From a virus, in the UHGV virus genome UHGV-1370083: a stretch of 50,925 nt of DNA; one strand, written 5' to 3'. Below are positions 29,655 through 49,600 of the stretch, in pieces; within the stretch, counting starts at the first letter, position 1, and each line of letters begins with the position of its first letter. The notes under the pieces were generated by a model. It saw only the letters and a program-made list of their open reading frames with translations. It ran no database searches and had not been told where the DNA came from. A program made the translations under genes and the position numbers.

Positions 29655-30020
29655 ATGCAAACAGAAAGAGAAAGTAAAGTGCAAAAGAAAACAATGGACA
29701 TACTCCGCAAATATGGTTGTTATGTTTATAAAAATGCACAAAGTGCTTTCACGGAAAAAGGTAGACCTGACTTAACTGCTTGTGTTCCTGTAAAGCTTGG
29801 AACTCTTGAAGAGATTTACGGCAAAGACGCAACACTCGGTATCTTTCTTGGAGTAGAAATGAAACGTGACGGTCATCTTGGTGAGGTGAGCGACGCACAA
29901 CAAATTGTAGGTCGAAAGATTATGAGGTCTAAAGGGTTGTGGTTTGCAATTGATGACCCACTCGTAATCGAAGCACTTATGCTAAAATTTAAGGTGGTAA
30001 AGCAAGATGAATTACAATGA
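29655..30020 (+). CDS. VRR-NUC domain nuclease (121 aa).
   Basis: GRPDL ... LGVEMKRDG ... SDAQQ matches the VRR-NUC PD-(D/E)xK-plus-Q pattern. TTGAAGGAGGTAACTT before the ATG. Confidence 0.6.
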   Translation: MQTERESKVQKKTMDILRKYGCYVYKNAQSAFTEKGRPDLTACVPVKLGTLEEIYGKDATLGIFLGVEMKRDGHLGEVSDAQQIVGRKIMRSKGLWFAIDDPLVIEALMLKFKVVKQDELQ

Positions 30021-31299
30021 GTATTTAAAAAACGAACGGCCGTATCAAGAGTACGGCTGTAACTTTTTATTAGAGCGTAAACATGCATGCTTGTTTTATA
30101 AACCCGGTAAAGGCAAAACTTATCCAGTAATTAAAGCGGTTAGAGAAATAGAAGCAGCAAAAAAGCGTGATATTAAAGTTCTTGTTTTATCGACCGCAGC
30201 AGCAATTAAAATGATGTGGCTTGTTGATATTGACCCTCAGAAAATTATGCCGAAACAAACTGATTATATGTCTTTCACAAAAGCAGTGCAAGATAAAGTC
30301 AAACCTGTACTTTTAAAAACTTTGTGGGACGTAATTATTATAGATGAGTGTCATCACATTAAAGCTCATAATACAAAAATCTCTAAACTTGTATATCAGC
30401 TTACAAAGAAGTGTGAATATGTATTTGGTTTGACAGGTACGCCTCGTGGTAATAGTGACGTTGATATTTATTGTCAGTTCCACAATATGAATGTTTCAGG
30501 TTGGGGTGATATTTCATATACGTTATTTGTAAATACTTGTTGTGACGTTGATACAAAATTTGTAAGAGGTATTGCAATTAAAACTCCTACTGCAATCAAT
30601 GAAAAGTACAGAGGCGGTTTTGAAAAGAATGTTGCAATGTATTCACAGCGCAAAGATTATGATGAGTCTGATAATATGCCTGAACTTAATATTAGTATTG
30701 TGAAAATTCCTTTTACGCCAAGTAAAGAATATTTACAAGTTGAGCAAGGTGTATTGCAAATGAGTGATTATGAAACCACTTTGAATAAGTTAACTGCTAT
30801 TTGTAAATTGCAGCAACTTGCAAATGGGTTTGTATATATCACCGATGAATATGATGAAGAAAAGAGAACTTTTAAACTTGATGGCAAGAACTTAAAGCAC
30901 GATTGGTTACAAGATAACTTGAAAGATAATTCTGTTATTGTATATCGGTATGCTGAAGATTATAACCAACTCTGTAGTCTTATGAATAAAATAAATAAAA
31001 CTTATACAAACAATGTTGGTGAGTTCAAAGCAGGTAAAGCTAGTATATTGTTATTACAATGTTCTCAGTCAGAGTCTTTTAACTTGCAGCAATGTGCAAA
31101 TCTTATTTTTTATACAATGGACTATTCGTTTATCAATTTTGACCAGATGCTTCACAGAGTATATCGTATGGGTCAAAAAGAACAAGTAAATATTACAGTT
31201 CTTATAAGCGATGGTAGTATTGAGAATAAGATTTGGAATGCAGTAGATAGAAAACAAACTTTATCACAGTTATTTTATGCGATTAAAGGAGAAGTATAA
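30007..31299 (+). CDS. SNF2-family (DExH) helicase (430 aa).
   Basis: Motif I KPGKGKTY, II IIIDECHH, III GLTGTP, VI HRVYRMGQ. AAGGTGGTAAAGCAAG before the ATG. Confidence 0.7.
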   Translation: MNYNEYLKNERPYQEYGCNFLLERKHACLFYKPGKGKTYPVIKAVREIEAAKKRDIKVLVLSTAAAIKMMWLVDIDPQKIMPKQTDYMSFTKAVQDKVKPVLLKTLWDVIIIDECHHIKAHNTKISKLVYQLTKKCEYVFGLTGTPRGNSDVDIYCQFHNMNVSGWGDISYTLFVNTCCDVDTKFVRGIAIKTPTAINEKYRGGFEKNVAMYSQRKDYDESDNMPELNISIVKIPFTPSKEYLQVEQGVLQMSDYETTLNKLTAICKLQQLANGFVYITDEYDEEKRTFKLDGKNLKHDWLQDNLKDNSVIVYRYAEDYNQLCSLMNKINKTYTNNVGEFKAGKASILLLQCSQSESFNLQQCANLIFYTMDYSFINFDQMLHRVYRMGQKEQVNITVLISDGSIENKIWNAVDRKQTLSQLFYAIKGEV

Positions 31300-33320: not shown

Positions 33321-33332
33321 GGAGAGTATAAT

Positions 33333-35240
33333 ATGTTAATGAGATTTTTCGACTTTGAAGTTTTTCCACATTGGTGGTGCTGCACATTTGGTGATTTGCA
33401 TAATGAAAAAGATGACGTCGATGAGAGTATTAAAGATACTTTTATTGTAGTTACTTCTGATATGCCTGACGCAAGAGAACGCTTGCTGAGCTTAATGAAA
33501 GAGAATGACGTTTGCGTTGTAGGTTACAATATTAAGTATTATGACTTAATGATTGCAAATGCAATATATCAAGGTTTTACACCAGAACAGGTTAAGATTA
33601 TCAATGACATAATCATTAGACCAGACTTAGCATGGAGCACTAAAGAGCATTTAAGATTACAGTCTTTTGCAAAGAAAAGATTATCAGGTTGTGTATATCA
33701 AGATTTGATGGACGATAACGATGGCTCACTTAAAGAAAAAGAAGCTATTCTTGGTCTTGATATTATGGAAAGTGAAGTTCCATTTGATAAAGAAGATTTA
33801 ACTGATTATGATAAAGTTGATGTTATTAAATATAACAAGCACGACGTTTATGCTTCAATGATTTTTTATCAAAAAGTTTGTTACAATTATACACAAACAA
33901 AGTTAATGCTTGGGCATAAGTTTAATATTCCAGAAGCTACTTGTCATATGGCAACTAATGCAAACCTTGTAGCTAAAGCGCTTAAAGCAGTTAGATGCAC
34001 TTTTGCAGATGCAGATAAAGTTGATATTAACTTACCTAAAAAGATTGACACTTATTGCAAAATAAATATTCCTGCAGAAGTACTTAATTATGTATTAACA
34101 AATCAAAGTGGGCTTCACGTAAAGTTATTTGGTAATGAAGTTGATTTTGGTAACGGTGGTATTCACTCTACTTTAGCAAGTAACTTATATGTAGAGTCTG
34201 ATAATGAATGGATATTAGTAAATGTCGATGCTCGTTCGTATTATCCTTCAATGCTTATACAATTTGCATTGCTTAGTCGAGCAGTTCATCAGCCCCAAAT
34301 CTTTGTAGATATTTATGATGAACGTGTTACAATTAAAAGTAAACCATCAAACGAGAAAACAGATTGGGACAAACTTCTTGAAGCTGCGCTTAAGTTAATT
34401 CTTAATACAACATACGGTGCAAGTGGTAACAAGTGGCTTGATTTATATGACCCTTATATGTGCACTTCGACATGTCGAGTAGGTCAGTTATTCTTAGCGG
34501 CGCTAGCTTGTAAAATTTATAGAGAAATTCCTGGTACAAAAATTATTCAAACTAACACTGATGGTATTCTTGCTTATGTACGCCGTAAAGATTTAGATAA
34601 GCTTAAAGCCTTACAAGCAGAATGGACTAAAGTTTCTGGTATCAATATGGACACCGATTATGTGAGTAAAATATGGCAAAGAGACGTTAACAATTATTTG
34701 CTTGTTAAAGAAGACGGTAGTATTAAAAAGAAAGGTGGTTGGCTTAATGATACGTATGTTAATAAAGGTACAGTTAAGCTTAGTCCTCTTACTGCATATA
34801 TTTGTGCAAAAGCTGCAACTAAGTTTTTGTTAGATGGAACTGATATTGTAGAGACAATTTATGCAGGAAGTAAGTTATCTGACTTTGTTATGACTTGTAA
34901 GAAAGGTCCTACTTATAGAGGTGTTATTCAAAAGTTTGAGGATGGTAGTGAGTTAGAACTCTTTAAATGTAACAGAGTTATTGCAACGACTGATACAAGT
35001 TGCGGTATGCTTTATAAATACAAAATGTTTAAAGGCAATTTGCAATATACTAAGATGCCGAATATTCCAGAACACTGCCGTACAATGAATGAAGATTTAA
35101 CCTCCTATGATTTTAGGGAGATTAGAAAGAAATTAGACTATATATTTTATATTATGAGGGCTCAAGACTTATTAGACATAGAATGGCAAAAATTGAGCGG
35201 TTTATCAATAACTCGCACAAAATCTTTCGATTATGTTTAA
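33333..35240 (+). CDS. Compact family-B DNA polymerase (635 aa).
   Basis: Exo I FDFEV, Exo II YNIKYYD, Exo III YNKHD. Motif A DARSYYPSML, motif B KLILNTTYGASG, and the DTD motif INMDTDY. CTAAGGAGAGTATAAT before the ATG. Confidence 0.65.
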   Translation: MLMRFFDFEVFPHWWCCTFGDLHNEKDDVDESIKDTFIVVTSDMPDARERLLSLMKENDVCVVGYNIKYYDLMIANAIYQGFTPEQVKIINDIIIRPDLAWSTKEHLRLQSFAKKRLSGCVYQDLMDDNDGSLKEKEAILGLDIMESEVPFDKEDLTDYDKVDVIKYNKHDVYASMIFYQKVCYNYTQTKLMLGHKFNIPEATCHMATNANLVAKALKAVRCTFADADKVDINLPKKIDTYCKINIPAEVLNYVLTNQSGLHVKLFGNEVDFGNGGIHSTLASNLYVESDNEWILVNVDARSYYPSMLIQFALLSRAVHQPQIFVDIYDERVTIKSKPSNEKTDWDKLLEAALKLILNTTYGASGNKWLDLYDPYMCTSTCRVGQLFLAALACKIYREIPGTKIIQTNTDGILAYVRRKDLDKLKALQAEWTKVSGINMDTDYVSKIWQRDVNNYLLVKEDGSIKKKGGWLNDTYVNKGTVKLSPLTAYICAKAATKFLLDGTDIVETIYAGSKLSDFVMTCKKGPTYRGVIQKFEDGSELELFKCNRVIATTDTSCGMLYKYKMFKGNLQYTKMPNIPEHCRTMNEDLTSYDFREIRKKLDYIFYIMRAQDLLDIEWQKLSGLSITRTKSFDYV

Positions 35241-35355: not shown

Positions 35356-35595
35356 ATGACAGTATTTACTGAAACATATATTCCGTATGAATTTAATAAT
35401 AAGATGGACTGTTATAAATATGTTGTTAATCGCGCACTTAACATACAAAAATCATTACGGTTTATAGAAAAAGATACAGAGCACCTTACTGTTAGATGCC
35501 CTGTATCAGCTGACTATTTAGATATTATTGGTGAACCAGAAGAAATAGAGTGGTTACATATGATGCTTAAAAATCGTCATTGGTATAAACCTTAA
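35356..35595 (+). CDS. Hypothetical protein (79 aa).
   Basis: TAGGAGGTAAAAACAAA before the ATG. Its stop overlaps the stop of the convergent giant gene. Confidence 0.45.
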   Translation: MTVFTETYIPYEFNNKMDCYKYVVNRALNIQKSLRFIEKDTEHLTVRCPVSADYLDIIGEPEEIEWLHMMLKNRHWYKP

Positions 35596-38500
35596 TAGAA
35601 ACCTTTCTTACTCTTTGTTCCGATATACACATTTTTAATACCTAATTTTTTAAGAACTTTATATTCTTCCTCAGTTGTATAATATTTATAACCATTGGAA
35701 GTATATACATAAATCTTAGCATATGAAGCGTTATCTGACATTAAACGTTGGATAGCGCTTTTCTTTTGCTTTTGCGTCATTTTGTTATAAACAAGTTCTA
35801 CATAAGTTCCATCCTCCTTCTTTACTTTATATTTCTTTTTACTTGCAAACAATTCTGCAAGAGAGTCTTTGTTTAATTCGCCGTACTTCTTATTAAGTTT
35901 AGCAGTATCTTTTGAGTCAAGCTTCTTGTCTTCGTAATTACCAGTCAAGTAGCTCTTATTAACGTCCTGCGCTAAAGCTTCTTTCTCAATATCGGTCACT
36001 TTGTAAGGGTTAATATCAATAGGACTATTAGCATTGATAAGTTTCACAAGATGAGGTAAATAGTATTTGCTCTGTACTTTACCCGTATAAATATCAATCT
36101 TCTTAGGCAGTGCATACGCGAAGCCCGGAATAGCTTGAACCATAGCACGTTGCATAAAGTTCAATGCTCCGTTCTTACTATATTGCGGTGCGAATGAATA
36201 CAAGTTTCTAGTGAATGCTTTCCAGAAATTAGGTATGAATGACAACATTGCATTCTCAGTAGTATTAACAAGATAATCTGCAAAGCTGGTAGAATAAGTA
36301 ATATTGCTATACAAATCATTAAATACAAAATCATCAAACAAACCGCTTGTAGTAGCTTTCATAACTTCCCAGAATGATTTGTTATCATCACCAAAGATAC
36401 TTGACATTGTAATACCCATCAAAATACCTTGCGTACCAAAGATGCCGCTTATATCAACATAGAAGTTAGTACCAATACGAAGCTTAGGCTTATCATCTTC
36501 GTCGTCAATAGCTGCAAGGCCAATTGCACCAAGCAAAAGACCAATCAATAAACCAGCACTTCCTATAATACCCTTACCAATTTGTTGTTTAGCAAAGTAT
36601 TCTGCGAACCGAGGACTAACAGAGCTTTGACCTTTACTGCTTGCTTCAGTCCGTTTTCTTTCCCATCTTTCAATCGTATTTTCAAGTTTGGCATAATTGA
36701 TTATTCCAAGTGCAAGTCCAGCAGGAGTATAGTTGAGACCTTCGAGGAACCAGTTAACACCAGCCGAGCCAAAAGGAAGTATTTGTTTGAAAGCAAAATA
36801 ACCAGCCGCGCCGAGTCTATTTCGAATAGCATTTTCAATACTGTTCACGAAATTACGTCTGTGCATATACTTGTAAGCAGCAGCAGCATAAGCTTCAGCA
36901 AGAGTATCAAGAACTTGACTACTATAACCTTTACTTAAATCTACTTTATCTTCTACAAGCATTTTACCAAATAAACGTTTTGTCTCTTTCTTTATCCAAG
37001 GGTCATCTGACAACCAACGGAACGTGAAGTCAGAGACTTTGTTCATTGTTTCCATTACAGCTTTAGCAGCTTTATTATTAACATTCTTTGTATCAAACAT
37101 TTGGTCGCCGAACATTTTAATAATGATTGCTTTAGCCATAGTGTTAGCAGCACTCTGTATACCTTGGTCTTTTTTAACGGTAGCTTTATCTTCAAAATAC
37201 TTAGACAGGCCATCAGACAAAGTATCATAGAAAGAATACTTCTCAATAACTTTACCATTAGCATCGGTTTTTGTATACAAAGTTTCGTTGAACATTTTAT
37301 CAACAAAAGCTGCGGTAGTATCATCAACTTGCGTACCACTGATTTTATATTGTTTGTATTCAAGCTGTTTAATACCAGGTAATTTACCTTTGAATTCTTT
37401 AGGAATTTCAGTTGCATTAGGGTTAGCTTTACGCCAGCTTTCGAACTTAGCAAGTATAGCTTCTTTCTTTGTACGAGACTTAGAAATTGCAAGGTCACCA
37501 AGCTTCTCAGTAATCTTACCAAACTTATCTACAACAATATTAGAAGTTGCATTTCGTATCGCAGTACCAGGTGCAGATAACATTGCCCAGCGCTCAATCT
37601 TCCAAAGGGTATCCCAAACTTTATCACCTTTCTTGTGTTCAACTTGTTTCTCTTTAACTTCATTCTGTATTTTAGCAAGAGCTTCTTCAATAGCAGTAAT
37701 CTTTTCTTTGTTAAGTTGTTCAGTAGTCTTACCTTCAACACCACTTGTAGGTTTCTTAAGTGCAGTAACAAGTTCAGCTACACTCTTTTCATCTACGTCA
37801 ATACCGTAATATTGCTGTAATGCAGAAGTAATTCGCTTGGCAGGGTTAACAAGACCAATCACTTTACTCCAGACAGACATTATAGTGGCGGCAGTACTTA
37901 CAGGTGTATTCATTAAGGCATTAAGCTGTTCTACAGTATCAGAATCAAATTGATAAATGCCATTGTTCATTAAGTCTGTAAAATTAGCAAGAACCATAAG
38001 TCTGACAGACTCATAAACACGAATATCATTACGAGTTACGTCACCCTCGAGCGCAAGACTGTGGCTATAGAAATCAATAATCTCTGCTGCTTCTTCTTGA
38101 GTTATTGTATCAAGTTTACCCGAATTTTTATCAAAGAATTCTTTAACACTTACCTCAATATTCGGGTCATTGACATCAGCAATGTATTTTACAGTAGACT
38201 CGCTTGTATCGCTGAATTGCGTTTTGAGAAGCTCTTCAAGTTTAGCAGGCATATTCTTATTACTATAAATATCAAAGTGAGTACCATTAGGTAAATTTAT
38301 TTCTGCAAGTTGTTTATACTTAGCAACTTCACCTTTCAAGTTTTTCACCTTTTCTTGTAACCGAGCTTTGTCACCCTTCAACTTTTCATTCTGAGCTTTT
38401 CTACGGTCAGCAGTATCAAAGATTGCTTTAGCAGTAGCATTATTCCAATAGCCTAATCTTGCTTTACGGCTAATCTCTTTAAGAGTTTCTTCAGCTTTAT

Positions 38501-41500
38501 AGTATTCAGAAATATCTTTACCTTGCCACCACTTATTGATTTGACCATCTTTAAAATATTCAGGATAGTCCATTTCAGCTTTTGCTTTTGCTTTAGGCGA
38601 TAAATAACTCATAATTTTATTACCAATACGGTTAATATTATCACTTACTGTCTTTTTAGGGCGCTTAGGAAATAATCTTTCATCCTTCTTGCTTGCTTCG
38701 ACTACTGCTCTAAGCATCTTATTACTGCCTGTTACATTTTCATATTGAGCAGCAAAATAACGTTCTTCAAGCTCGTCTCTGCTAAGTGCGTTTACAAGAC
38801 TAGGTATCTCAGCAATTTTAGCTTCAGCATCTTCTTGACTTATTACACCTTGCTCGATTTGGTTGTAAACTTGTCTCGCAAGAAAGAGTTTAAGTTTACT
38901 ATTCATTGTTTCTACAGGAACGTCACCGATAATATCATTGAAAGCATCAGTTGAATTAGGGTCGCTGATTAAATCAATTAACTCACGACTTGTATCATCA
39001 CCTTTACTACCACCAACTTGACGGTTAAGACTACTTTCTTTTCTGATTTCATCAGGAGCTTTATAACCACTGAGTATCAACCAATAAGCACGACCAGCAG
39101 CACGACCGCCAGACTCGATACTACCATCAAAGTCATTAGCCCATACGATACGAGCCGCACCGGTTTTAGCTTCAGTAAGTTCTTCCATCGCTTTGCTATA
39201 TGCAAGAGCATGCTTAAGATAAGCTTTGCCAAGAGGCGAGCTAGCACCTTTCTCAGTTTTAAGCTCTTCAATAATAGAGTCGAACTTTTCTTGGCTGATT
39301 TTCTTTTCAGTCATTTCAGTACGGCCTGTATCTCTGAGTGCACACCACAATGCGTAATATTGCATAGACTTTATAGTAGCCAGGTCATTAAGCTGCTTAA
39401 AAGATTTAATCACTGGATTATGGAAGTATATCTTATTAAACAATTTCCAGGTATAATCATTTACTTTATTTGCATCAATAGTACGCAACCATCGCATATT
39501 TTTTTGGTAAGTAAGAGTACCTTGTTGACTACCTCCAATATATTTCCACAAAGACTTATTCAAGAATGCAGGATTTGCAGCTTTAACAAAATTTTGTGTT
39601 TCAGGGTCCATTTGGATAGGCCTATATTTTCTAATAAAGTATTCAAGGTTTGTACCTCTGGCCTCTTTATTAGAAACAGTGCGAGGTGCAACTGGCTGGA
39701 CTTCTGCATCAGTTACGACATTCTTTTTATGTTTTGTAATATATGCTTCTTTCTTAAGACGTTTTTGTTCCGCCCTCAGTTCTTTAAGATAAGCTTCTTT
39801 TTCTTCTTTGCTCATTCCTTCAAGCTGAGCTCTTTCATCGGCGTTAAGACCATCGTCGGTTTCACTAAGAGACAAAATATGAGAATTACCATTTTGGTCA
39901 AAATTATATTTATCAAGCAGACTACCCATTTTAGATTCAAATGTTGTAATAAGTTTATCACTATCTTTTAAACTAAATAAGGTATCACCATTAGCATCGT
40001 TAATTATAACAGTACCAATAATATTTTTTTCAAATAATTTTATGGTAGTGATATATAAATTAACTAATGTTGAACGATTAGTAGCAGCATTTACATTTAT
40101 TGTTAAAGTATTATTAGAAATATCACCAACTAAAGTATTATCAAATAATTGTACTTGCTGAGATTTAGTAAGATTATTAGCTGTGCTATATAATTTACTA
40201 AAATTATATAGAGCAGCTTCTGGTATTGCATATTTACTAAAGTAAGTATCACCATTTGGAAATATACATACTGATGTAGCAGACTTGCTCGGCTGCTGTA
40301 CAAGACTAAGATACTTCTTATTGTTACGAAGAATTTGGTTAGTAAAATCATTTGTAATTTTACTATCAATGAACTTATAATTATCGTTAGTCATATTATT
40401 GTACGTATATTCACTAGGGTCTAATAAAATATTATTATCTTTATCAAAACCTAATATTTTAACAGTTTTAGATTTTGAAGCAATATCAGTAGGTACTAAA
40501 ATTTCCGCCATAACGTCAGCTACATAACCAACTAAATCTTTAGGCTTAACAATACCTATTGTTAAATACATATTTTCAAGTAACGTTTCTTTTCCAGTAA
40601 TACCTTTATTTAAAAATGCATGCGTTGCTCTAGTATACTGCTCTCTTGTATTATACATAGTTGAGCCATAAGAACGCAACTTAGTATCACCAAATTGAGC
40701 AGATACAAAATCATCAGGATAGTAGACAGAATTTGTTTGTACTCTAAAAAATGGAATATCAGTATTTAAAAATTCATCATAAGGAATATTATTTCCAGCA
40801 TCTTGCCATAATTGTTTCAACATAATATCTCTAATTTCAGGGTCTTGAGCAAATTTAACTAACTCTTTTTTACCTTCGGGTGTACCAGCCTCTACCCATT
40901 CTCGAACTACTGAATTATCTTGTACTTTATTATCAAACTCTTCTGCAATCGCACGTCTTTCTTCTGTTGTAGCTTTGTTGTTTGGTCCATAAATTATATC
41001 TTTATATAAATAAGTTTCATAGTTAGTATCATCAAGAAGGTCGTGAACAAGCTTAATTCTACCAAACTTTTCGTATACAGGATAAGCGTATGACAATAAT
41101 GCATCATCAGTTTTAGTGCCTTTGGTACCATTGGTTTTATTCCGCAACGGTTCTGCGCCAGTAACTTCGAAGGTACCAAACGGAGTATCGAGATAAGTTT
41201 TATTACCGACGTCTCTTCTAAACATAGGTACGCGCAAAGGTGCAGCATAGTAGCTTTGAGGTCCTTGCCAACCACGTGCATCTATTTCACCAGTAACACA
41301 AGTATAAATTAACCGACTAAGCATATCAAAAGCAGCCGCATCAGTTAAACCTTTAACGTTAAGTTCAGGAAAATATTCGCGCGCTGCCTCAAGTATTTTA
41401 TAGCTAGAAGCAAATGGCAAAGTTGTAAAATCTATGTATGCAAAACCGGCACTAAAATTATTTTGATGTTGTATAGCATGTTCAAATTCATGTAATACTT

Positions 41501-44500
41501 CATAGCGTAATTCATTATCCGTTTTATCAATAACTTTTCCGTTAGTAAGCTCACGCTTAGTAACTAAATATATAGTATTTGTAGAATAATCATAATTAGA
41601 AGGACCAAGCTTATCAACCAACTTGATTTTAGTATCTTTTAAATTACCGTACACATATTTAGCCTGAATAATATCGCTAATTTTAGTATCTTTAGTAATT
41701 ACAAAGTTTTCATCTTTTGCAATACTATAGAAAGGTTTTAAATCTGCTAATCCATATTCACCGTTGTTATATTTTACAATAGATACGGTGCCTGTGTCAG
41801 CTAAAATACTATCACGCAAATAGGCAAAAGTAGTACTCTCAGTAACTACGCCGTAAGTATTTCTGATTTCTCTTTGAGTGTCACTTGATAAAAGTTGAGG
41901 GTCGCGAATATAGTCTGTGATACTATAATAATTCTTTGCAACGGCACTAATATCTTTAGAAATATACTTTTCATAATATTCGTGCGTATTAAATAATTTA
42001 TTAGTAATAATATTTTCTGCAAAGTCAGGTGCGAATTCAGAGAAACGCATAGACTTTAAATGAGCTTGGTATTGCGTATCTTCAGTAATATTCTCAACAA
42101 TAGTGTACGTACCATTTTTAGCAATATTAAGAGTATACGCATTGCCACTTACAGCAAGCAACTGTTCTCTATAATATTCTTTACGAAATTCTTGGCGCTC
42201 AGATGCAGTACCGCTTTCACCTGGAACTTCTGTAGCCATCCAAGTTTGTAACGTAACATTATTATTAAGAAGTATTTTAGCTAACTGCCAGTTGGCATTA
42301 GAGCTAAGTTCGGGATAGACTACACCATTGAAATTACTTCTATATTGTCCAACATAATAATCGTTAAGTTTATTAAGGGCTTGAGTTCTAGTAGTTTCAC
42401 TACCACTAGTAAGCTGATAAAAAGTAATCTTCTTATTAGCATCAGGAATAGGCATAACGTCGATACGCTTTTTAAGTATTTCAAGGTCAGCATCTGTAGT
42501 TTTGCCAGTTTTAATTCTCTTACCAACTTCAAGATTGTAACGATGAGAATCAACATAACTTCTCTGAGCAGGAGTTAAAAGTGATACAAAATCGGTAGTA
42601 ACATTATCTTGTACAAGCAAATATTCGATAATTGATTTCTGCCATTCTTTCTTCGTATTCTCAAGCTGAAGTTTATACATATCATCAGTAATAGTATCAC
42701 CAGTCGCAGCTTCAGTAATAGTATCTAACTGCAATAACAATTTTCTTGCAACTTGCGAGGTTTGATATAAGCACTGTTTATAGAATTCACTATCATTAAG
42801 CAATGTAGCAACTGCTTCTTCTGCCGTGGCATCAGCTCTATGATAGTTCGTTTTATACAGATTATGAATTTCAGTGATGGCATATTTAAGGTCGGGCACT
42901 TTAATAAGATTATCGATGAGTACATTACTTGCATCATTCTTACGTACATCAAGTAATATATCAGAAGAAGAGTCAATCATATTCTGAGGTATAATACGAT
43001 GACCGTCGACATTAACACTGTTAGTGCCATCTTCGGAAATAGATACACTCTTAGTATTAGGCATTAATAGCAACTCATCAATCTTAGCTTTAGCATCTTT
43101 TTGTGCTTTACTGCGAGGTTTAACCTCTTGCTCAGGTTTAGTAGCTTCTTCTTTAATATGCGTTTCTTTAATTTTAGTAATATTAGCATCTTGCATTTTC
43201 TTAGCAAGTAATTCTTTTTCAGCTGCTGTGAAAGCTTCATATCTACTCGCCACATACGACGATGCTAAATTCATAACTTCAGTATTAAGTTTATCTACTA
43301 CCACATTCAAATCGGCTTCAACATAGGTTTGATTGGTTTGAGTAGTATATTGAGCAGCAAATTCTTGCATGAAAGAAATAACTCTCTCGGTTGCTTCTTG
43401 ACCAATATTGCCATAAAAAGATGCAAGTAACTGGAATGACTGAACTGCCTGACCAAGCATAGCTTCACGATATTCAATAGGCTGAGAAGTATCATTACAG
43501 AATTCTTGAATTTCATGCATAAGAGATTTGGTGTTTGCAATAATGTTCCAACTCTTCCACTTGCTGAACTTCTTCATTACAGGCTTGCCTTCTTCATCTG
43601 TAACAATATCACCTTTTTTATTACGAAGTACTTCATCAGTTTCAATGCGCTTAGTAGTAAGAACTTTAACTGCAGAAGTAAGGCCAGAGACTAAAGCACC
43701 TGCTGCAAAAGCACGAGCCATATCGGCAAAACTAAAACCTGCATAGTTTTGTAAAGGTGAAGGTCTGGTTCCAAATTTGCTGTGAATAACATAAGTTGCA
43801 GTATTGATAAACTGACCAGAATATTCCTGCAATGCTTCTTCAATACCGTCTTTAAGCATATCGTTAATAAGACGCTTTCTACCAGAAATAATACCAGATT
43901 TAGGACTGTAATTAAACATAATCTGTTTCTCAGTAGTAGCGCCAAATGTATTAGCCATTACTTTTGTAACAGTATATTCAGCAGCAGCACGCAATGCAGC
44001 ATTTGTTGCAAGATAAATCGTCGGGACACTTGCAAGACTTTCATCTTGACAAAGTTCTCGATAATTGTTAGTACCCATGCTACCCCAATATAATATCTGT
44101 CCAGTCTTCTGAAGAGTATGTCCAGCATTTACAAATACTTTTGCGGTAGTCGTACCTTGCCCGGCTTTAGCAATAGCGTTGCCTCCATAATTAAATGCAG
44201 CCATTGTAAGTACTTGTCCAAGAGTATCGCCCAAAAGATTAGTAATATTATAACCAGCCGTAGGTTTACCTTCAACAGTTACAAGGTCGGTATTCAAACG
44301 CTCCCATTCGTATAATGACCTACGCAAGTCATCAGTAGGCATAAAATTGATTTCACCAGCTTCTCTCCAGGCTCTATCAAATGCTGCCCATTTACCGCCT
44401 TCTGTTTCGTCACTAATCAAAGCATCAATACTTTTGAACAAACCAGTGCCAACAGTAGCAACGCCTTCAATTATATTTTCAGCTGTATTAAGAACGGATA

Positions 44501-44987
44501 ATGTAATATTACCAAGAGCCCCAGCAGCGGTATTAGTTGCTTTTTCAAGTGCTCCCATATTTTCTTTAGCAATACGCTCTTGATTTTGCTTAATAATATT
44601 ACGCTGTGCTGTAGCATATTCATCAAGTTGTTTTTGATGATACTCTTTTTCAGTCATCAGTACATTATGTTTTTGCGGATTACCTTGTTCATCATAAACA
44701 GTTTCTTCATAATCTTTCTTCTTCTCGTCATCCAAGAATAAAGAAACGGCGAGCTGTTGCATTTTGTGCTCGGTATCATACACGTCCCAATTAGGTAAGT
44801 TTCTAATAGCGCTAATAGACATTTTTTCATTAGCGGCATTGATAGTACCTAATAACGTATCAAGAGACCCAGTCTTTGAATACTGGGTCCACGTGTCATT
44901 ACCACCAAGCTCTTTGTACAGCTCGTCGTTTTGCAGTTTAGCTTTCGCTACACCATACGGGTTCTCATATTGTGTGTAAGTTAACAT
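35592..44987 (-). CDS. Giant virion-module protein (3131 aa) with a zincin-like HExxH motif and a C-terminal glycine-zipper transmembrane segment. Candidate internal/ejection protein or fused tape-measure-like protein.
   Basis: A single uninterrupted frame of 9396 nt. GTAAAGGAGTATATGT before the ATG at 44985-44987. HEFEHAIQH is encoded at about 41464-41493. The Gly-rich hydrophobic segment IGKGIIGSAGLLIGLLLGAIGLAAI lies near the C-terminus. It is followed on the same strand by the tail-like genes. Confidence 0.6.
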   Translation of the reverse strand: MLTYTQYENPYGVAKAKLQNDELYKELGGNDTWTQYSKTGSLDTLLGTINAANEKMSISAIRNLPNWDVYDTEHKMQQLAVSLFLDDEKKKDYEETVYDEQGNPQKHNVLMTEKEYHQKQLDEYATAQRNIIKQNQERIAKENMGALEKATNTAAGALGNITLSVLNTAENIIEGVATVGTGLFKSIDALISDETEGGKWAAFDRAWREAGEINFMPTDDLRRSLYEWERLNTDLVTVEGKPTAGYNITNLLGDTLGQVLTMAAFNYGGNAIAKAGQGTTTAKVFVNAGHTLQKTGQILYWGSMGTNNYRELCQDESLASVPTIYLATNAALRAAAEYTVTKVMANTFGATTEKQIMFNYSPKSGIISGRKRLINDMLKDGIEEALQEYSGQFINTATYVIHSKFGTRPSPLQNYAGFSFADMARAFAAGALVSGLTSAVKVLTTKRIETDEVLRNKKGDIVTDEEGKPVMKKFSKWKSWNIIANTKSLMHEIQEFCNDTSQPIEYREAMLGQAVQSFQLLASFYGNIGQEATERVISFMQEFAAQYTTQTNQTYVEADLNVVVDKLNTEVMNLASSYVASRYEAFTAAEKELLAKKMQDANITKIKETHIKEEATKPEQEVKPRSKAQKDAKAKIDELLLMPNTKSVSISEDGTNSVNVDGHRIIPQNMIDSSSDILLDVRKNDASNVLIDNLIKVPDLKYAITEIHNLYKTNYHRADATAEEAVATLLNDSEFYKQCLYQTSQVARKLLLQLDTITEAATGDTITDDMYKLQLENTKKEWQKSIIEYLLVQDNVTTDFVSLLTPAQRSYVDSHRYNLEVGKRIKTGKTTDADLEILKKRIDVMPIPDANKKITFYQLTSGSETTRTQALNKLNDYYVGQYRSNFNGVVYPELSSNANWQLAKILLNNNVTLQTWMATEVPGESGTASERQEFRKEYYREQLLAVSGNAYTLNIAKNGTYTIVENITEDTQYQAHLKSMRFSEFAPDFAENIITNKLFNTHEYYEKYISKDISAVAKNYYSITDYIRDPQLLSSDTQREIRNTYGVVTESTTFAYLRDSILADTGTVSIVKYNNGEYGLADLKPFYSIAKDENFVITKDTKISDIIQAKYVYGNLKDTKIKLVDKLGPSNYDYSTNTIYLVTKRELTNGKVIDKTDNELRYEVLHEFEHAIQHQNNFSAGFAYIDFTTLPFASSYKILEAAREYFPELNVKGLTDAAAFDMLSRLIYTCVTGEIDARGWQGPQSYYAAPLRVPMFRRDVGNKTYLDTPFGTFEVTGAEPLRNKTNGTKGTKTDDALLSYAYPVYEKFGRIKLVHDLLDDTNYETYLYKDIIYGPNNKATTEERRAIAEEFDNKVQDNSVVREWVEAGTPEGKKELVKFAQDPEIRDIMLKQLWQDAGNNIPYDEFLNTDIPFFRVQTNSVYYPDDFVSAQFGDTKLRSYGSTMYNTREQYTRATHAFLNKGITGKETLLENMYLTIGIVKPKDLVGYVADVMAEILVPTDIASKSKTVKILGFDKDNNILLDPSEYTYNNMTNDNYKFIDSKITNDFTNQILRNNKKYLSLVQQPSKSATSVCIFPNGDTYFSKYAIPEAALYNFSKLYSTANNLTKSQQVQLFDNTLVGDISNNTLTINVNAATNRSTLVNLYITTIKLFEKNIIGTVIINDANGDTLFSLKDSDKLITTFESKMGSLLDKYNFDQNGNSHILSLSETDDGLNADERAQLEGMSKEEKEAYLKELRAEQKRLKKEAYITKHKKNVVTDAEVQPVAPRTVSNKEARGTNLEYFIRKYRPIQMDPETQNFVKAANPAFLNKSLWKYIGGSQQGTLTYQKNMRWLRTIDANKVNDYTWKLFNKIYFHNPVIKSFKQLNDLATIKSMQYYALWCALRDTGRTEMTEKKISQEKFDSIIEELKTEKGASSPLGKAYLKHALAYSKAMEELTEAKTGAARIVWANDFDGSIESGGRAAGRAYWLILSGYKAPDEIRKESSLNRQVGGSKGDDTSRELIDLISDPNSTDAFNDIIGDVPVETMNSKLKLFLARQVYNQIEQGVISQEDAEAKIAEIPSLVNALSRDELEERYFAAQYENVTGSNKMLRAVVEASKKDERLFPKRPKKTVSDNINRIGNKIMSYLSPKAKAKAEMDYPEYFKDGQINKWWQGKDISEYYKAEETLKEISRKARLGYWNNATAKAIFDTADRRKAQNEKLKGDKARLQEKVKNLKGEVAKYKQLAEINLPNGTHFDIYSNKNMPAKLEELLKTQFSDTSESTVKYIADVNDPNIEVSVKEFFDKNSGKLDTITQEEAAEIIDFYSHSLALEGDVTRNDIRVYESVRLMVLANFTDLMNNGIYQFDSDTVEQLNALMNTPVSTAATIMSVWSKVIGLVNPAKRITSALQQYYGIDVDEKSVAELVTALKKPTSGVEGKTTEQLNKEKITAIEEALAKIQNEVKEKQVEHKKGDKVWDTLWKIERWAMLSAPGTAIRNATSNIVVDKFGKITEKLGDLAISKSRTKKEAILAKFESWRKANPNATEIPKEFKGKLPGIKQLEYKQYKISGTQVDDTTAAFVDKMFNETLYTKTDANGKVIEKYSFYDTLSDGLSKYFEDKATVKKDQGIQSAANTMAKAIIIKMFGDQMFDTKNVNNKAAKAVMETMNKVSDFTFRWLSDDPWIKKETKRLFGKMLVEDKVDLSKGYSSQVLDTLAEAYAAAAYKYMHRRNFVNSIENAIRNRLGAAGYFAFKQILPFGSAGVNWFLEGLNYTPAGLALGIINYAKLENTIERWERKRTEASSKGQSSVSPRFAEYFAKQQIGKGIIGSAGLLIGLLLGAIGLAAIDDEDDKPKLRIGTNFYVDISGIFGTQGILMGITMSSIFGDDNKSFWEVMKATTSGLFDDFVFNDLYSNITYSTSFADYLVNTTENAMLSFIPNFWKAFTRNLYSFAPQYSKNGALNFMQRAMVQAIPGFAYALPKKIDIYTGKVQSKYYLPHLVKLINANSPIDINPYKVTDIEKEALAQDVNKSYLTGNYEDKKLDSKDTAKLNKKYGELNKDSLAELFASKKKYKVKKEDGTYVELVYNKMTQKQKKSAIQRLMSDNASYAKIYVYTSNGYKYYTTEEEYKVLKKLGIKNVYIGTKSKKGFY

Positions 44988-45061
44988 ACATATACTCCTT
45001 TACTGCTCTTCGCAGTTATTTGAAATATCATTATTATATATTTTACAAACCTGCTTTATTA

Positions 45062-45142
45062 GATTTTAATATATAATAGGAATGCAATTTATATTCAATT
45101 GATATAATATATAGACTAAATTGATTATATATTAAAATCAAT
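45062..45142. repeat. Inverted pair of GATTTTAATATATAAT (45062-45077) and ATTATATATTAAAATCAAT (45124-45142), enclosing a copy of TTGATATAATATATAG (45099-45114).
   Basis: Read directly. The right arm overlaps the stop codon of the 498-aa gene. Confidence 0.8.
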
Positions 45143-46634
45143 ATAATCTACTTTTAGATTTAATAGCGCTGGTTTGTTTCTGATTTTCAGCATACTTTGT
45201 CATTGCTATTAAAACGTTATTGAATGCATCAGTGGCCTGTCTATTAAATTCACGGTTCTGAGCATCTTGTCTTTCGCCTTCTCTAACACCACTGTAAATA
45301 CCATTTGCAAACATAAGCGCTGCTCCGATAGCCGCTATAATAGCTCCGACCGGCGCGCCTACACCAGTTGCAGTAAGTCCAGCCGCACCACCTAATAACG
45401 TACTTCCAACAGTTGCAGCACCAGCAAGACTACCAGCGGCCGCAGTACCGGCAGCACCAGCAGCAAAATTACCGGCAGTAGTGTTCATAATTTTCCAGAA
45501 CTTGTCACTCTCACTTGCTGATAAACTTTCAATATCTGTTAAGCCAGTTACAAGAGTATCAAGACTCATACCAAGTTCTTGTTCTAGACCTTTATCAATA
45601 CCCATATCCTTAGCTACTTTTGTAAAGTTAGTAGCAAGGTCTTTAATCTTAGTGGTTTGCTCTTTAGACTTGTCATCAGTACTATTGAGAATATTGTCCA
45701 AATCATTTTTAAAGCTTTCATATTGCTTGTTGATTTGAGCAGCCTTGATACCAGTAACACGTTCAGCATAACTCCAATCTCTGTCAGTTGATTCTCTACC
45801 TGTTAATGTACGGAAACTACCTGCAACAGTACCTTCCTTAGTATAATTATAAGGGTCGCCAGCAAACATATAGTCAGCAAGGTCAGGGTTAGTACCTCTA
45901 ATATAATCTTCCCAGCTCATTATGTTATCAAGGCCTTCAGGAATTTCACCTTGCCCAATATAGTTTTCTACAAAATCTAAGTAATCAGTTAAGTCTTCAT
46001 TAGATTCATAACGACCTAATTCTTCATTATAGGTATAGAAATCTTTATAAAGTTCATCAACTGTTTTTAATCGAGCATCACCATATCTTATATTGCCTTC
46101 TTCATCTCTTTCCCAATCGCCTTTACCTTCATTAGCGGTCTCATCCCAAATAGCATCTTGAGTAAAGTAGTTAGAGAATCGAGGGTCAGCAGCAAGTTGT
46201 GGTGCTTTCTCAAACAAATATTTTGTATAATCATAAGCCGCATTTTCATATGCCGCAAAGTTTTCAGCTCTCTCAGTTAATGCTTCATCAATAGCACTTG
46301 CACCTTCTTGATAACTCTTCTGAACTGCCTGTTCGTTTTGCGCAAGATTTTGTCTATAAGTATTATAAGCTTCTTCAAGATTAAGTTGATTTTCAGAAAG
46401 CATCTTCTGCTTACTTTCTCCAAATAATGCACTACTTTCAATATTTGCACGGTTCTGCAAATAGGAAGTATACGCAGCTGTAGAAGCCTGCGTATAGTCC
46501 TTTACTAATTGATTTTCTGCTGCAATAGCAGACTGCTGATTTTGAGACAATAAATTTTCCCAAGTTTTACGGTTGTAATAATCTCTATTACTTTCCTGCA
46601 ATACTGTTTTATATTGACCTGTAGTTAATGGCAT
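45138..46634 (-). CDS. Virion protein (498 aa): N-terminal coiled coil and C-terminal Gly/Ala-rich hydrophobic segment. Candidate membrane-inserting ejection or tape-measure-like protein.
   Basis: GAGAGGTTAAGATA before the ATG at 46632-46634. TAATG coupling with the upstream gene. The C-terminus reads AGNFAAGAAGTAAAGSLAGAATVGSTLLGGAAGLTATGVGAPVGAIIAAIGAALMF. Confidence 0.5.
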   Translation of the reverse strand: MPLTTGQYKTVLQESNRDYYNRKTWENLLSQNQQSAIAAENQLVKDYTQASTAAYTSYLQNRANIESSALFGESKQKMLSENQLNLEEAYNTYRQNLAQNEQAVQKSYQEGASAIDEALTERAENFAAYENAAYDYTKYLFEKAPQLAADPRFSNYFTQDAIWDETANEGKGDWERDEEGNIRYGDARLKTVDELYKDFYTYNEELGRYESNEDLTDYLDFVENYIGQGEIPEGLDNIMSWEDYIRGTNPDLADYMFAGDPYNYTKEGTVAGSFRTLTGRESTDRDWSYAERVTGIKAAQINKQYESFKNDLDNILNSTDDKSKEQTTKIKDLATNFTKVAKDMGIDKGLEQELGMSLDTLVTGLTDIESLSASESDKFWKIMNTTAGNFAAGAAGTAAAGSLAGAATVGSTLLGGAAGLTATGVGAPVGAIIAAIGAALMFANGIYSGVREGERQDAQNREFNRQATDAFNNVLIAMTKYAENQKQTSAIKSKSRLY

Positions 46635-49600
46635 TATCTTAACCTCTCTGTAATTCTATACTTAATTGCAATGTTAGGAGTAACAAAAGCTTGAGGATAT
46701 TTGTCAGTCTTGTCATTGCTAACTTGCAACTGAAATGCATTGGTCTTAATGAAATTGACCCGCTTAATCATTGTAGTAAGTTGGTCAATATCATATTCGA
46801 CGGTGTCACTATCAGACAAATTGTTTAAGTTACGATAGTTCGTAAACTTAAGCTTAAATCTTAAAGGCCTTCCGCTTTGTTCAGTTACAATAGAAACGCT
46901 ACGGATATGCTTATAATTATTGGGAGCACCAAAATGCATCTTTTGCGTGGTGAAAGACCAATCGAAGGGAATGAGTTCATTGTCATATACTGATACCTCA
47001 TCAAAGTTAAATTTATAAATATCACCTCGCCCAGTAACAAGAACTAAGTCTTCAGTGAACGTATTATCGTTTATATACACAAGTTGCTTAGGAATCTGCG
47101 GCAATCTCCATATCCACCAAGACGAAGTTCTTAAATCATAAACAAGTATTTTTGGAGAAGTCGACTTGTATAAGAATAACCAATTCTTGTACTGACAAAG
47201 TTTAATCGGTCGTGTAGCATATTCTTGATATACGTCCATAATCGCTTCAGTTAAGTAACGATAAATTTGTTCAGTGGACTGTACAAAGTCTTGATAGTTC
47301 AAAGTGGACAAACCTTTGAGAGTTGTGATATAAATATTATTGCCATCATATGACAATAACATATCGGAACCATCACGATTACCAAGGGCAAGTTTTGTCT
47401 TGCTTAAATAATAAACATTATTGCTACTATCATAAGTGAGTTGATATGCTGTAGTTTCCAAAAAGATGCCTAAAGCTGTTTGCGAAAAGTTTACAAGAGC
47501 TGTAATCTTATCAGTAAAGATATTATCGTTTTTAGTATTTTTTGGAATATAAAACAAATTCTTGCCCTCAGAAATATCAGTATCAATAAGTGTTTTACTT
47601 GACTGATAAAAGACATTTCCTTGAGATAAGCAAGTTGTAATAAAATCTACAGAATGTTCCGGCATTATATAATCTATGCTGCCTTTTACTAAATTGTCTA
47701 CAGAAATGGTTTCTGTGTACTGATTAGAATAAATTACACCATTACTGCTATCCATCCAAATTGCAACGCCTGCATCATCTATGTATAATGGTCTTGATGC
47801 AAACAATAAAGGTATTGTCTCATTGCCATCAACAAAATTAGTGGACATTAGCATGTTGTTCTTACTTAATTTTACTTGCGGACTTATAGTAGTAGTTGAG
47901 GTATACTGGTCATTAGTAATAGTTACAGTACATGTGAAAGGTCGTTCACTTCTTGTAGTTACAATATTTGCTGTTATATTTTCATAATAATATGTGTAAT
48001 AAGATTCTTCGTGCTGCCGTGATAAATTATTAAGTGTTACATTATAACGGCTAACTGTAATATTAGTACCATTTAAAGCATCAAGTGTAGCATATTTATA
48101 ACCATTGTCGAATACTACCATATCTTCAACTTGATGACTTAATTCATTCCAAACAAGTCCGTTTGGTAAAAACCCAAATAATTTATACTTAACAGCACTA
48201 CTAATAGTTCCTTTAGAAGAACCAGTAGCTTGCACAGCATTTGGAGTATAATACAAATCAGACCGATAAGCAATTGTACCTTCAATATTAAAACCTTCTG
48301 TTAAATTAGTGCAAAATACGTAATATTTTGTAGCATCACCAGTAATAAGTCTAATAGTTCCACCTAAATAAACTACTAATAAACCAGTATCACCTGTTTT
48401 AATTATGCGTATCTTGTTATCAAGATTTTCAAACATATCATTCCAAATTGATAAATCTGGTTTAGTTTCTTGAGTATTAAGAGTACAGAATTTTGTGCTG
48501 CCTTTTGTACTATCACCTACTGCAAGTACACAACCGCTATAGTAACAAGCAATAGATTCTAAATCACCAGTTTCAGTTTGAGTAAACATTCGAGACGTAA
48601 ACATTATTCCGTACGCAAAAGTATAATCATCAGCATCACCAAATGCAATAGGAATAGAATAAGTTTCTCCATTATACGTTTCTTTTACTGCAATATTACC
48701 GCTTTGCGGTTTAGCCCATAAACTACGAACCATGCCAGGTAACAAATACTGACTAATTACTTTTGTAGTAGCATCCATACCATTTATTGATATGTATAAA
48801 TCGCTATCTGTGATTTTACAAGTTTGAAATAACGTCCAATCAGAACTAGAAAATGCATTCACATTAGCAGCATCTATCTTTTTTCTATAAATTTCAATGC
48901 CTTCATTTGCACTGCCTTGATTATAATTACAATAATATACATACCCTCCTTGCCTTGATAATACTGGTATTTGTACAGGAGTAAAATGCCAGTACTCATA
49001 ACGCTTACCATCATTTACTATTTCATATTTTGGTAAAGTAAATTCATACCAAGTATAGCCATCTGCACTGATATAATTTTTACCGTTATTATGGGTAGTA
49101 TCAATATTTGCAATATCAGTATATAAATATACAAAAGTATTACTTGTTAATTTAGCAACTTGATACTGACCTTGTCCTGCAGTAGTTATAAATTGTCCTA
49201 CAGTAGTATAAAATGCTTTATTATTATTTTTTGCCCATGTAATTTTGTATACATTTGTACCAATTCTAACAGTAACTTCTTTACCTTCCAAATCGACAGT
49301 ATTAGGAACTTTAACAGCAGGGTCAAATAAATATCTTTGTATATGGCCAGAAGTTAAAACATTTGGTTGCTGCAATACAAGCTGGCCAGTAGAGTCAGGC
49401 CTATCAATTGTGAATACACCAGTTCCAGTATAAATTTCAGTTAAAGGAAAATATACGGTATCATTGTTTGCATAAAAATCAATTTTATTTTGGCCATATA
49501 CAATAGCTGTGATTTTATCAGTTTCAAACAAACAATACGCAAAATTCAGCCAGCACAAATAAATCTGTTGAGTCGTTTCATATAACTGAAAACCACTACT

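Follow-up and report, generated by a model that had tools for sequence, protein, structure and literature searches.

A giant protein of the uncultured phage genome UHGV-1370083 related to internal virion and polyvalent phage proteins

Introduction

The described systems closest to the giant open reading frame (ORF) of the virus genome UHGV-1370083 are the internal virion proteins of T7-like phages, the polyvalent proteins and the virion RNA polymerase of phage N4. Homologues of internal virion proteins C and D (IVP-C and IVP-D) are "notoriously difficult to identify", and the corresponding genes of P-SSP7 were assigned by size and synteny (Hardies et al., PMC4819975). According to the same work, IVP-D homologues carry lysozymes, the N4 virion RNA polymerase (vRNAP) or a methylase, while the muralytic domain of the class is treated as variable; the 3500-aa vRNAP of N4 is regarded as an IVP-D homologue with an embedded polymerase, and gp60 of Pseudomonas phage H66 as an IVP-D homologue fused to an S-adenosylmethionine-dependent methylase. 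N4 vRNAP also bears a zincin-like MPTase (PMC5512222), located in its C1 subdomain (PMC13434306), and in the literature its N-terminal region is assigned to injection and its C-terminal 1400 aa to encapsidation. In the MPTase core of the polyvalent proteins, Zn is bound by two His and a distal Glu, while the Glu of HExxH serves as general base (Iyer, Burroughs, Anand, de Souza, Aravind 2017, PMC5512222). A polyvalent protein with a metallopeptidase, gp47 of the Stx phage phi24B (vb_24B_48, 2807-2811 aa), has been found in virions by proteomics, and a role as encapsidated ejection protein was proposed for it (preprint 10.64898/2026.04.10.717836).

Here we describe the giant ORF in the 50,925-nt stretch of UHGV-1370083 (the window, meaning the whole DNA that was analysed). 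The comparisons point to a capsid-packaged internal virion (ejection) protein of the polyvalent/IVP-D class as its probable product. This kind of protein is already known from the polyvalent proteins, the cargo-bearing IVP-D homologues, N4 gp50 and phi24B gp47, and no new principle is involved; what is new is this very large uncultured family, its fixed chassis with a variable middle and the explicit homology links. The analysis provides a working annotation for a large family of gut-metagenome phage proteins that are unnamed in the libraries, each occupying about a fifth of its genome, and the explicit homology tests join the T7-type internal core proteins, Aravind's polyvalent proteins and the N4 virion polymerase.

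Results and Discussion

The giant ORF and its family

35592-44987, minus strand: giant ORF, 9396 nt with ATG start, 3131 aa, 353.9 kDa
44995-45000, minus strand: Shine-Dalgarno sequence AAGGAG, 7 nt 5′ of the ATG of the giant ORF, read directly from the sequence

The original prediction, made from the DNA letters without database searches, had pointed to a single 9.4-kb reading frame with a strong Shine-Dalgarno sequence. Both were recovered: the frame lies where it had been placed and is intact in independent assemblies, and AAGGAG is read at 45000-44995. The ORF takes up 18.5% of the approximately 50.9-kb genome. Pfam, PHROGs and NCBIfam gave zero matches on its product, and phmmer and family-profile searches against PDB sequences yielded nothing beyond coiled-coil noise and a hairpin match of compositional origin to V-ATPase c subunits (E=0.5). 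The expectation that the protein contains several novel domains is therefore a fair one, as these three libraries, the PDB sequences and Foldseek against PDB yielded no significant match.

To collect relatives, a profile was made of residues 2440-3131 and searched exhaustively with HMMER against representatives of clusters at 50% identity. This gave 2640 cluster representatives at E<=1e-3, of which 431 passed E<=1e-30. Among the 150 best, almost all are 2000-3800 aa long and carry the module at their extreme C-terminus. Conservation was counted in a 48-member alignment, the members of which are 16-59% identical to the window protein, and 41 relatives were scanned against Pfam. The alignment revealed a common layout consisting of an N-part, a zincin-like domain, a length-variable middle and a C-terminal module. 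The distance from the start of the N-part to HExxH is 1171 ± 90 aa and the C-part measures 618 ± 41 aa, while the middle ranges from 871 to 1988 aa (standard deviation 283). As far as sequence searches can tell, this large uncultured family is new, its N-part and C-terminal module being absent from Pfam, PHROGs and NCBIfam.

The C-terminal module and the internal virion proteins of cyanophages

35595-37667, minus strand: IVP-D-like/polyvalent-protein C-terminal module, residues 2441-3131, the best conserved part
36507-36581, minus strand: glycine-zipper hydrophobic helix IGKGIIGSAGLLIGLLLGAIGLAAI, residues 2803-2827, 19-residue Kyte-Doolittle mean 2.28
36390-36449, minus strand: second, milder hydrophobic segment, residues 2847-2866, after the acidic loop DDEDD

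The C-part is marked by the motifs MLSSPGTxxRN, YxxMH, PFxxxxxNW...YTPxG, the glycine zipper and PKKxDxYTG. The zipper glycines are G2809, G2816 and G2823, the first two of which are identical in all 48 members, and IGKGIIGSAGLLIGLLLGAIGLAAI is the only segment of the giant protein above the Kyte-Doolittle threshold of 1.5. Together with the DDEDD loop and the second hydrophobic segment, the zipper helix would make a putative membrane hairpin. The Gly-rich hydrophobic helix had been noticed in the original prediction and is indeed present, at residues 2803-2827; it had been placed at the C-terminal end of the protein, from which it is in fact about 300 aa away. In the AlphaFold2 model of residues 2440-3131 (pLDDT 78.6, pTM 0.69) the module is mostly helical, the zipper helix is followed by a β-hairpin region and a small α/β domain stands at the end.

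Foldseek comparison of this model with BFVD gave 36 significant matches (E 7e-14 to 6e-4, probability 1.0, about 700 columns, TM 0.35-0.5). Apart from members of the module's own family, these fall into two groups. One group consists of C-terminal chunks of PolyVal ADP-ribosyltransferase, MuF-C, LPD3, Nuclease, EF-hand and ART-PolyVal-like proteins. The other contains the "internal virion protein" of Synechococcus phages S-RIP1, S-CBP2 and S-CBP3 and of Pelagibacter phage Eyrgjafa, and a protein of cyanophage NATL2A-133. No weight was given to the sub-threshold Foldseek matches in PDB, which were to core proteins of PhiM1 and E1004 and to BepA (E=0.5-1.1).

The second group was examined with a test profile built from seven cyanopodovirus proteins (S-RIP1, S-CBP4, S-CBP1, S-TIP37, S-CBP42, 9515-10a and Syn5 gp45). 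Alignment of the C-terminal module to this profile by hhalign scored 97.7% with E=1.7e-12 over 497 columns, and it was collinear through every invariant motif, the hydrophobic helix included. The wrong-region controls, in which the N-part, the zincin and the middle of the family were compared with the same profile, were non-significant (P=0.03-0.3). In six of the seven cyanopodoviruses the gene immediately precedes that of the tail fibre, a place that corresponds to T7 gp16 (IVP-D); in the autographivirus S-RIP1 the matching 1067-aa gene stands last in the internal-core block and the annotated tail fibre follows two genes further on. Profile and model comparison thus show homology between the C-terminal module and the internal virion proteins that T7-like cyanophages encode at the gp16 position.

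The likeness to the proteins at the IVP-D position of cyanopodoviruses (S-RIP1 YP_007676442 etc.) consists of the homologous C-terminal approximately 560 aa (Foldseek E 1e-9 to 3e-7). Both sides share the Gly-rich hydrophobic helix and the P-x-x-x-D-x-Y-T-G motif, both are mostly α-helical and both are encoded by late-operon genes. The cyanopodovirus proteins are, however, only 1070-1600 aa long and no match to their N-terminal parts was found, whereas the giant protein has about 2400 additional N-terminal residues, the zincin included. The gene positions also differ: the cyanopodovirus genes precede the tail fibre within one or two genes, while the giant gene ends its operon and the tail fibre is encoded elsewhere (6152-8803). 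The giant gene closes a set of four co-conserved genes (239, 1101, 498 and 3131 aa), after which comes a terminator-like hairpin.

T7 gp16 and gp15 were compared with the C-terminal module, with the cyanophage IVP-D profile and with a merged profile, and nothing significant was obtained. T7 gp16 was equally undetectable from the cyanophage profile, and its non-detection agrees with the difficulty of recognising IVP-C and IVP-D noted by Hardies et al. (PMC4819975). As to the general features of the IVP-D class, both AlphaFold2 models of the giant protein are predominantly helical, and no muralytic (transglycosylase/lysozyme) domain was found in it with Pfam and PHROGs.

A relative of another build was met among the sequences collected. 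P0047 (L022:5285-6982) is a complete 565-aa ORF in which a truncated phage lysozyme (PF00959) is fused to the last approximately 480 aa of the module. On its 7.2-kb contig an SMC_N/AAA_21 gene precedes it, and the layout recalls the muralytic domain of T7 gp16; since it is known from a single contig, it could be a chimera.

The N-part and the zincin-like domain

41988-44987, minus strand: conserved N-part, residues 1-1000, mostly α-helical in the model
43827-43850, minus strand: N-terminal signature D-G-I-E-E-A-L-Q, residues 380-387
41268-41645, minus strand: zincin-like (MPTase-type) domain, about residues 1115-1240, recognised by signature, model topology and profile similarity
41478-41492, minus strand: HEFEH, residues 1166-1170, in helix 1157-1175 after β-strands
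41286-41288, minus strand: E1234, in a later helix

E383, E384 and Q387 of the N-terminal signature are identical in 48/48 members; its family form is [DE]-G-x-E-E-x-L-Q, with the invariant core EGxEExxQ. H1166, E1167, H1170 and E1234 are likewise identical in every aligned sequence, as are G1181 and Y1228. The original prediction had located HEFEHAIQH at about residue 1165; it was found at residues 1166-1174 (41466-41492), only a few bases off the predicted span. The number of HExxH motifs expected from the composition of the giant protein is 0.016.

The AlphaFold2 model of residues 196-1300 (mean pLDDT 70.2) shows a small β-sheet, then the confident HEFEH helix 1157-1175 (pLDDT ~85) and further helices. 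Ten of the 41 relatives matched Pfam DUF6782 ("putative metallopeptidase", best E=4.9e-7) and one matched SprT-like. The predicted topology of the window protein agrees with that of the MPTase core of polyvalent proteins (PMC5512222). Because Foldseek against PDB left the fold unconfirmed, the zincin assignment is based on the invariance of the signature, on the topology of the model and on profile similarity. The reading of HExxH as a zincin motif thus gained in substance, as it belongs to an invariant HExxH...E signature and its helix is predicted to follow a β-sheet as in the polyvalent MPTase. The metal-binding and catalytic signature is intact in every member, from which protease activity may be deduced.

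The length-variable middle

39738-41117, minus strand: hypervariable stretch, residues 1291-1750, the least conserved part and the site of length variation and of extra domains in the family
37668-39737, minus strand: moderately conserved region, residues 1751-2440, with coiled-coil-like stretches and without recognisable domain
39111-39131, minus strand: [YF]-D-G-[TS]-x-x-S motif, residues 1953-1959, overlapping NDFDGS; G1955 in 48/48 and D1954 in 40/48 members

The [YF]-D-G-[TS]-x-x-S motif, which contains a single acidic residue, is the only strongly conserved feature of the middle. Across residues 1291-2440, G1955 was the sole invariant residue and no acidic pair was conserved in the 48 members. 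The original prediction had remarked that the string NDFDGS (residues 1951-1956) lacks the third Asp of the RNA polymerase (RNAP) motif NADFDGD, and its doubt about a polymerase proved right: D1952 is unconserved and is replaced by Tyr in 18/48 members. Its interpretation as a T7 motif-A-like or NADFDGD-like RNAP motif was rejected on the same ground.

No recognisable enzyme was found in the middle of the window's giant protein with Pfam, PHROGs and NCBIfam, the zincin being its sole recognisable catalytic domain, and residues 1291-2440 may hold unrecognised domains. The middle of some relatives is better filled. An extra HExxH occurs there in 12/48 members, and a C-5 cytosine DNA methylase was detected in 2/41 relatives, P0109 (E=5e-34) and P0121 (100 bits vs a cut-off of 22). 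The methylase spans about residues 1850-2360 of P0109 and residues 1878-2118 of P0121, both of which are metagenomic relatives; the order of the methylase motifs in P0109 suggests a permuted or split arrangement. By description, P0109 and P0121 resemble H66 gp60, where an internal-virion-protein chassis carries a cytoplasm-bound DNA methylase; the giant protein of the window differs from H66 gp60 in having no methylase. The fixed chassis with a variable middle makes the family a natural place to search for new injected anti-defence enzymes.

Comparison with polyvalent proteins and phi24B gp47

The giant protein resembles the polyvalent proteins of Iyer et al. (PMC5512222) in its length of more than 2000 aa, in being encoded among late genes and in having a zincin-like MPTase hub with an HExxH helix and a Glu helix, to which relatives add a DNA methylase or further MPTases. 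In addition, the predicted fold of its C-terminal module is that of C-termini annotated PolyVal-ART, MuF-C and LPD3. It differs from them in lacking Pfam LPD, MuF, ART, helicase and methylase domains and in having one recognisable catalytic domain only, and its approximately 1170-aa N-part and C-terminal module are not named domains in the libraries searched. No LPD or MuF match was obtained in Pfam with the giant protein or with the 41 relatives scanned.

Like the giant protein, phi24B gp47 is a very large product ending the late region of a podovirus and contains metallopeptidase domain(s). Its comparison with all regions of the family revealed no homology and only a weak alignment of the HExxH strand-helix (P=0.036); nothing in it matches the C-terminal module, and it lacks a strongly hydrophobic segment. 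Since homology to the giant-protein family was undetectable, phi24B gp47 can be regarded as an analogue only.

A probable packaged ejection protein and the points that weigh on it

Taken together, these comparisons make it probable that the giant gene encodes a capsid-packaged internal virion (ejection) protein of the polyvalent/IVP-D class. The original prediction had named ejection and polyvalent proteins among the possible classes, and the homology of the C-terminal module to cyanophage internal virion proteins and to polyvalent C-termini supports this. Its placement of the gene in a virion module is reasonable; the support comes from strand and operon context, as terminase, portal and tail fibre are encoded on the same strand. 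We infer packaging, ejection, membrane insertion, protease activity and the protease substrate as follows. A few copies would be packaged in the capsid along with the DNA, and at infection the protein would be driven out through the tail, either before the genome or together with it. The C-terminal approximately 690-aa module would refold at the cell envelope, where the glycine-zipper hairpin would enter the cytoplasmic membrane, and it would help to form a DNA conduit, probably with the co-conserved 498-aa and 1101-aa neighbours. The N-terminal approximately 2400 aa would thereby be delivered to the cell. The zincin-like domain would most likely cut the giant chain itself, either in the head or after delivery, or else a target in the envelope or the host, and the length-variable middle could be a lineage-specific payload slot, occupied by a methylase or a second zincin in some relatives. 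E383, E384 and Q387, the four zincin residues H1166, E1167, H1170 and E1234, and the glycine zipper are invariant and open to direct mutation.

Several observations speak against this interpretation. The presence of the giant protein in virions is deduced from homology and analogy, and the cyanophage proteins to which it is tied were named IVP-D by synteny and annotation, while T7 gp16 itself has no detectable similarity to the C-terminal module (P>=0.07). The module also gave no significant result against the C2 region of N4 vRNAP (P=0.04-0.07). At the level of structure, Foldseek against PDB found no significant match for the C-terminal model (best E=1.0) or for the model of residues 196-1300 (best E=0.22; BepA E=1.1), the helix bearing E1234 is of moderate confidence (pLDDT ~56-65), and Pfam gives no match on the window's giant protein itself. 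The family has no cultured member: neither megablast nor tblastn, with the DNA and all protein parts, found a match in 50,697 deposited phages. Podovirus morphology is an assumption, the capsid and tail genes being mostly unrecognisable, and a Gram-positive Clostridia host, at which there is a weak hint, would, if real, require the periplasm-spanning picture drawn from T7 and N4 to be adapted.

The best surviving alternative is that the gene encodes a non-packaged, late membrane-anchored factor with a protease, acting for example in superinfection exclusion, lysis timing or as a scaffold of the replication compartment, and that the likeness to internal virion proteins reflects a shared membrane module. 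The lone strongly hydrophobic hairpin could simply be a membrane anchor, and most of the giant protein is without assignable function. Against this, the homologous module of cultured phages occurs in proteins that are annotated as internal virion or core proteins and encoded in the virion gene block, and the polyvalent proteins that bear it carry MuF-C, ART and nuclease domains, as is usual for injected effectors (PMC5512222). The late strand is, moreover, shared with terminase, portal and fibre, and the phi24B analogue is found in virions. On this balance we consider a non-packaged factor unlikely.

Much less room is left for a tape measure, or another tail structural protein of a long-tailed phage, fused to a peptidase. 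Like many tape measures, the protein is very long and helical with a Gly-rich hydrophobic segment; some of its structural relatives were auto-named "Myoviridae sp." or "Siphoviridae sp." and there is one "tail tape measure" entry (E=0.66). The original prediction had listed a tape-measure fusion among its options, but this received no support, as no tape measure family in Pfam or PHROGs was matched. Sheath, tube or tail chaperone genes were not recognised in the window, the late module of which is short. The significant homologues are podovirus internal virion proteins and polyvalent proteins, and the gene ends its operon instead of lying among tail genes. By the usual rule of 1.5 Å tail length per residue, 3131 aa would imply a tail of about 470 nm. 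A tape measure is thus very improbable, and the packaged ejection protein remains the preferred explanation.

Comparison with the N4 virion RNA polymerase

N4 gp50 is of the same size class as the giant protein, and its gene likewise closes the late strand and converges on the replication genes. In the profile-profile comparison (hhalign) with eight schitovirus vRNAPs, residues 341-440 of the family aligned with 354-438 of N4 (P=3e-4 to 5e-4, probability 32-40%), where EGLEExLQ is matched to E-x-x-(E/T)-E-x-x-Q at about residue 385, found in all eight vRNAPs. The zincin region of the family, compared with C1 of the eight vRNAPs, gave 83% and E=8.7e-6 after realignment. Both matches are collinear and fall on invariant motifs of both families. 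The wrong-pair controls gave P=0.12-0.8 and the zincin cross-controls P=0.46-0.73. The family hidden Markov models found nothing in N4 gp50, gp51 and gp52 by HMMER, and N4 C2 was not significantly similar to the cyanophage IVP-D profile either. Thus, on profile evidence, the zincin is probably linked with N4, whereas a link of the N-domain is suggested and one of the C-terminus unproven. The domain order also distinguishes the two proteins: in N4 gp50 the RNAP stands between the N-terminal domain and the zincin, while in the giant protein the HExxH domain comes directly after the N-part, and the giant protein has no RNAP domain or conserved catalytic acidic residues.

Two further observations concern the same pair. 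The only strongly hydrophobic segment of N4 gp50 (3210-3231) lies about 270-290 aa from the C-terminus, compared with about 305-330 aa for the glycine-zipper helix. The replication modules of the window and of schitoviruses both contain Sak4-like, primase, exonuclease and DNA polymerase genes; their order differs, so that the likeness is one of gene content, and the window has a helicase and a ligase in addition.

An N4-like vRNAP whose RNAP domain has diverged past recognition was weighed on these data. Apart from the size class and gene position of gp50, and the N-terminal motif and HExxH domain collinear with it, this explanation has in its favour that no other RNA polymerase candidate occurs among the large ORFs of the window. 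However, RNAP similarity was not detected in the giant protein by HMMER against PDB, by the profile against PDB, with mini-vRNAP, or in Pfam and PHROGs, and residues 1291-2440, where alone there is room for such a domain, lack a conserved acidic pair. This stretch is also the most variable part in length and sequence, contrary to what a catalytic core would show, and the domain order is unlike that of N4. A hidden polymerase is therefore the least credible of the functional explanations; it is refuted as far as conserved catalytic residues go, and we consider it hardly tenable.

A broader, tentative proposal, which we consider possible but doubtful, would keep the packaged ejection protein and extend it to a common ancient delivery chassis, composed of an ExxEExxQ injection N-domain, a zincin and an IVP-D-like membrane module. 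The family would then be an RNAP-less sister of the N4 vRNAPs, with residues 1291-1750 and 1751-2440 as undescribed effector or anti-defence domains that the zincin might release after injection, possibly into a Gram-positive gut host.

Integrity of the ORF and genome context

An artefact, either an assembly chimera or genes fused by sequencing errors, has nothing but the unusual size in its favour and is excluded. The original prediction had asked whether an assembly error might split the ORF; it does not, as two independent assemblies, a JGI contig of 50,980 bp and an ENA contig of 50,895 bp with a different permutation, encode exactly the same giant protein. Dozens of full-length homologues (3100-3500 aa, 21-88% identity) are present on ~50-55 kb contigs, with full-length conservation reaching down to ~20% identity, and a collinear architecture is common to hundreds of full-length homologues. 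With 0.068 stops expected per random codon of this strand, the chance of 3131 stop-free codons is given by ln P = -221. As the same protein occurs on two differently permuted contigs, the genome is about 50.9 kb long and circularly permuted.

49933-50652, minus strand: upstream 239-aa protein, with weak matches to PHROG "virion structural protein" families (phrog_2125, E=1.1e-3; phrog_13046, E=1.8e-4)
46634-49939, minus strand: upstream 1101-aa protein without known domains; a 912-aa syntenic gene is present in a distant relative
45138-46634, minus strand: upstream 498-aa protein, co-conserved with the giant gene; its residues 416-450 form a hydrophobic segment rich in Gly/Ala
35473-35507, minus strand: terminator-like hairpin (14-bp stem, 6 G-C pairs, T-run) about 85 nt past the giant stop, found by consensus scan alone
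22768-35240, plus strand: replication module with exonuclease, ATP-dependent ligase, thymidylate synthase-like, Sak4-like, helicase, primase and DNA polymerase genes
11669-13414, minus strand: large terminase
9467-11614, minus strand: portal
6152-8803, minus strand: tail-fibre-like protein of 883 aa, with a collagen triple-helix repeat at residues 129-168 (Pfam)

Since the genome is permuted, the minus-strand block running from 14 kb to 1 most likely resumes at 50.9 kb and continues down to 35.6 kb. The genes for the 239-, 1101-, 498- and 3131-aa proteins would consequently be the last four of the late strand, convergent on the DNA polymerase gene. This order is kept in a relative with a giant protein of only 21% identity, where genes for 212, 912, 467 and 3496 aa are followed by convergent polymerase, primase and helicase genes; in this 51.6-kb contig at least 11 co-directional genes lie upstream.

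The 498-aa protein has 74 homologues of 460-520 aa on the same contigs as the giant homologues and is a candidate partner ejection protein. The original prediction had seen in it a Gly/Ala zipper similar to that of the giant protein, and the hydrophobic segment at its residues 416-450 answers to this description. Its profile gave nothing significant against N4 gp51 and gp52, T7 gp13-15 and the S-RIP1 core genes, and Pfam returned a sub-threshold RTX match alone (17.5 bits vs a 26.8-bit cut-off). The 1101-aa protein, without any match in Pfam, PHROGs and NCBIfam, is a candidate partner ejection or core protein.

Among the remaining late genes, nearly all of the presumed virion genes (104-310 aa) at 1-9470 and 13405-14489 (minus strand) had no PHROG or Pfam match. 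A Pfam search of ten further window genes, in which lysis and capsid genes were sought, identified only the collagen repeats of the tail fibre. The major capsid protein could not be identified among the window genes by PHROG or Pfam, and the tail morphology is for this reason an assumption. No tRNA genes were found.

Hints at the host are weak. The relatives of the portal among deposited phages are unannotated human-faecal fragments only, and the DNA polymerase is about 30% identical to Bacillus and Enterococcus phage polymerases. The sole match in 185,579 species genomes was CANQDR010000012.1, a 52,241-bp contig with a 36%-identical C-terminal module in an uncultured Clostridia metagenome-assembled genome from rabbit gut; its presence in the Clostridia bin is either a binning artefact or a host hint.

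Some minor features of the window complete the picture. The terminator-like hairpin falls in the convergent gap between the giant ORF and the DNA polymerase gene, where the gene caller also placed a 79-aa ORF on the opposite strand, overlapping the stop of the giant ORF. The promoter search around the giant gene yielded weak sigma-70-like sites that were not enriched over shuffled sequence. Between the 498-aa gene and the giant ORF lies a very AT-rich segment of 150 nt (44988-45137) with repeated TATATA-like strings, which could be an internal promoter or regulatory region. The GC content is 0.49 around the terminase (12001-14000) and 0.44 at 1-2000, compared with 0.32-0.38 elsewhere, a shift that may reflect mosaic acquisition or a peculiarity of the packaging region.

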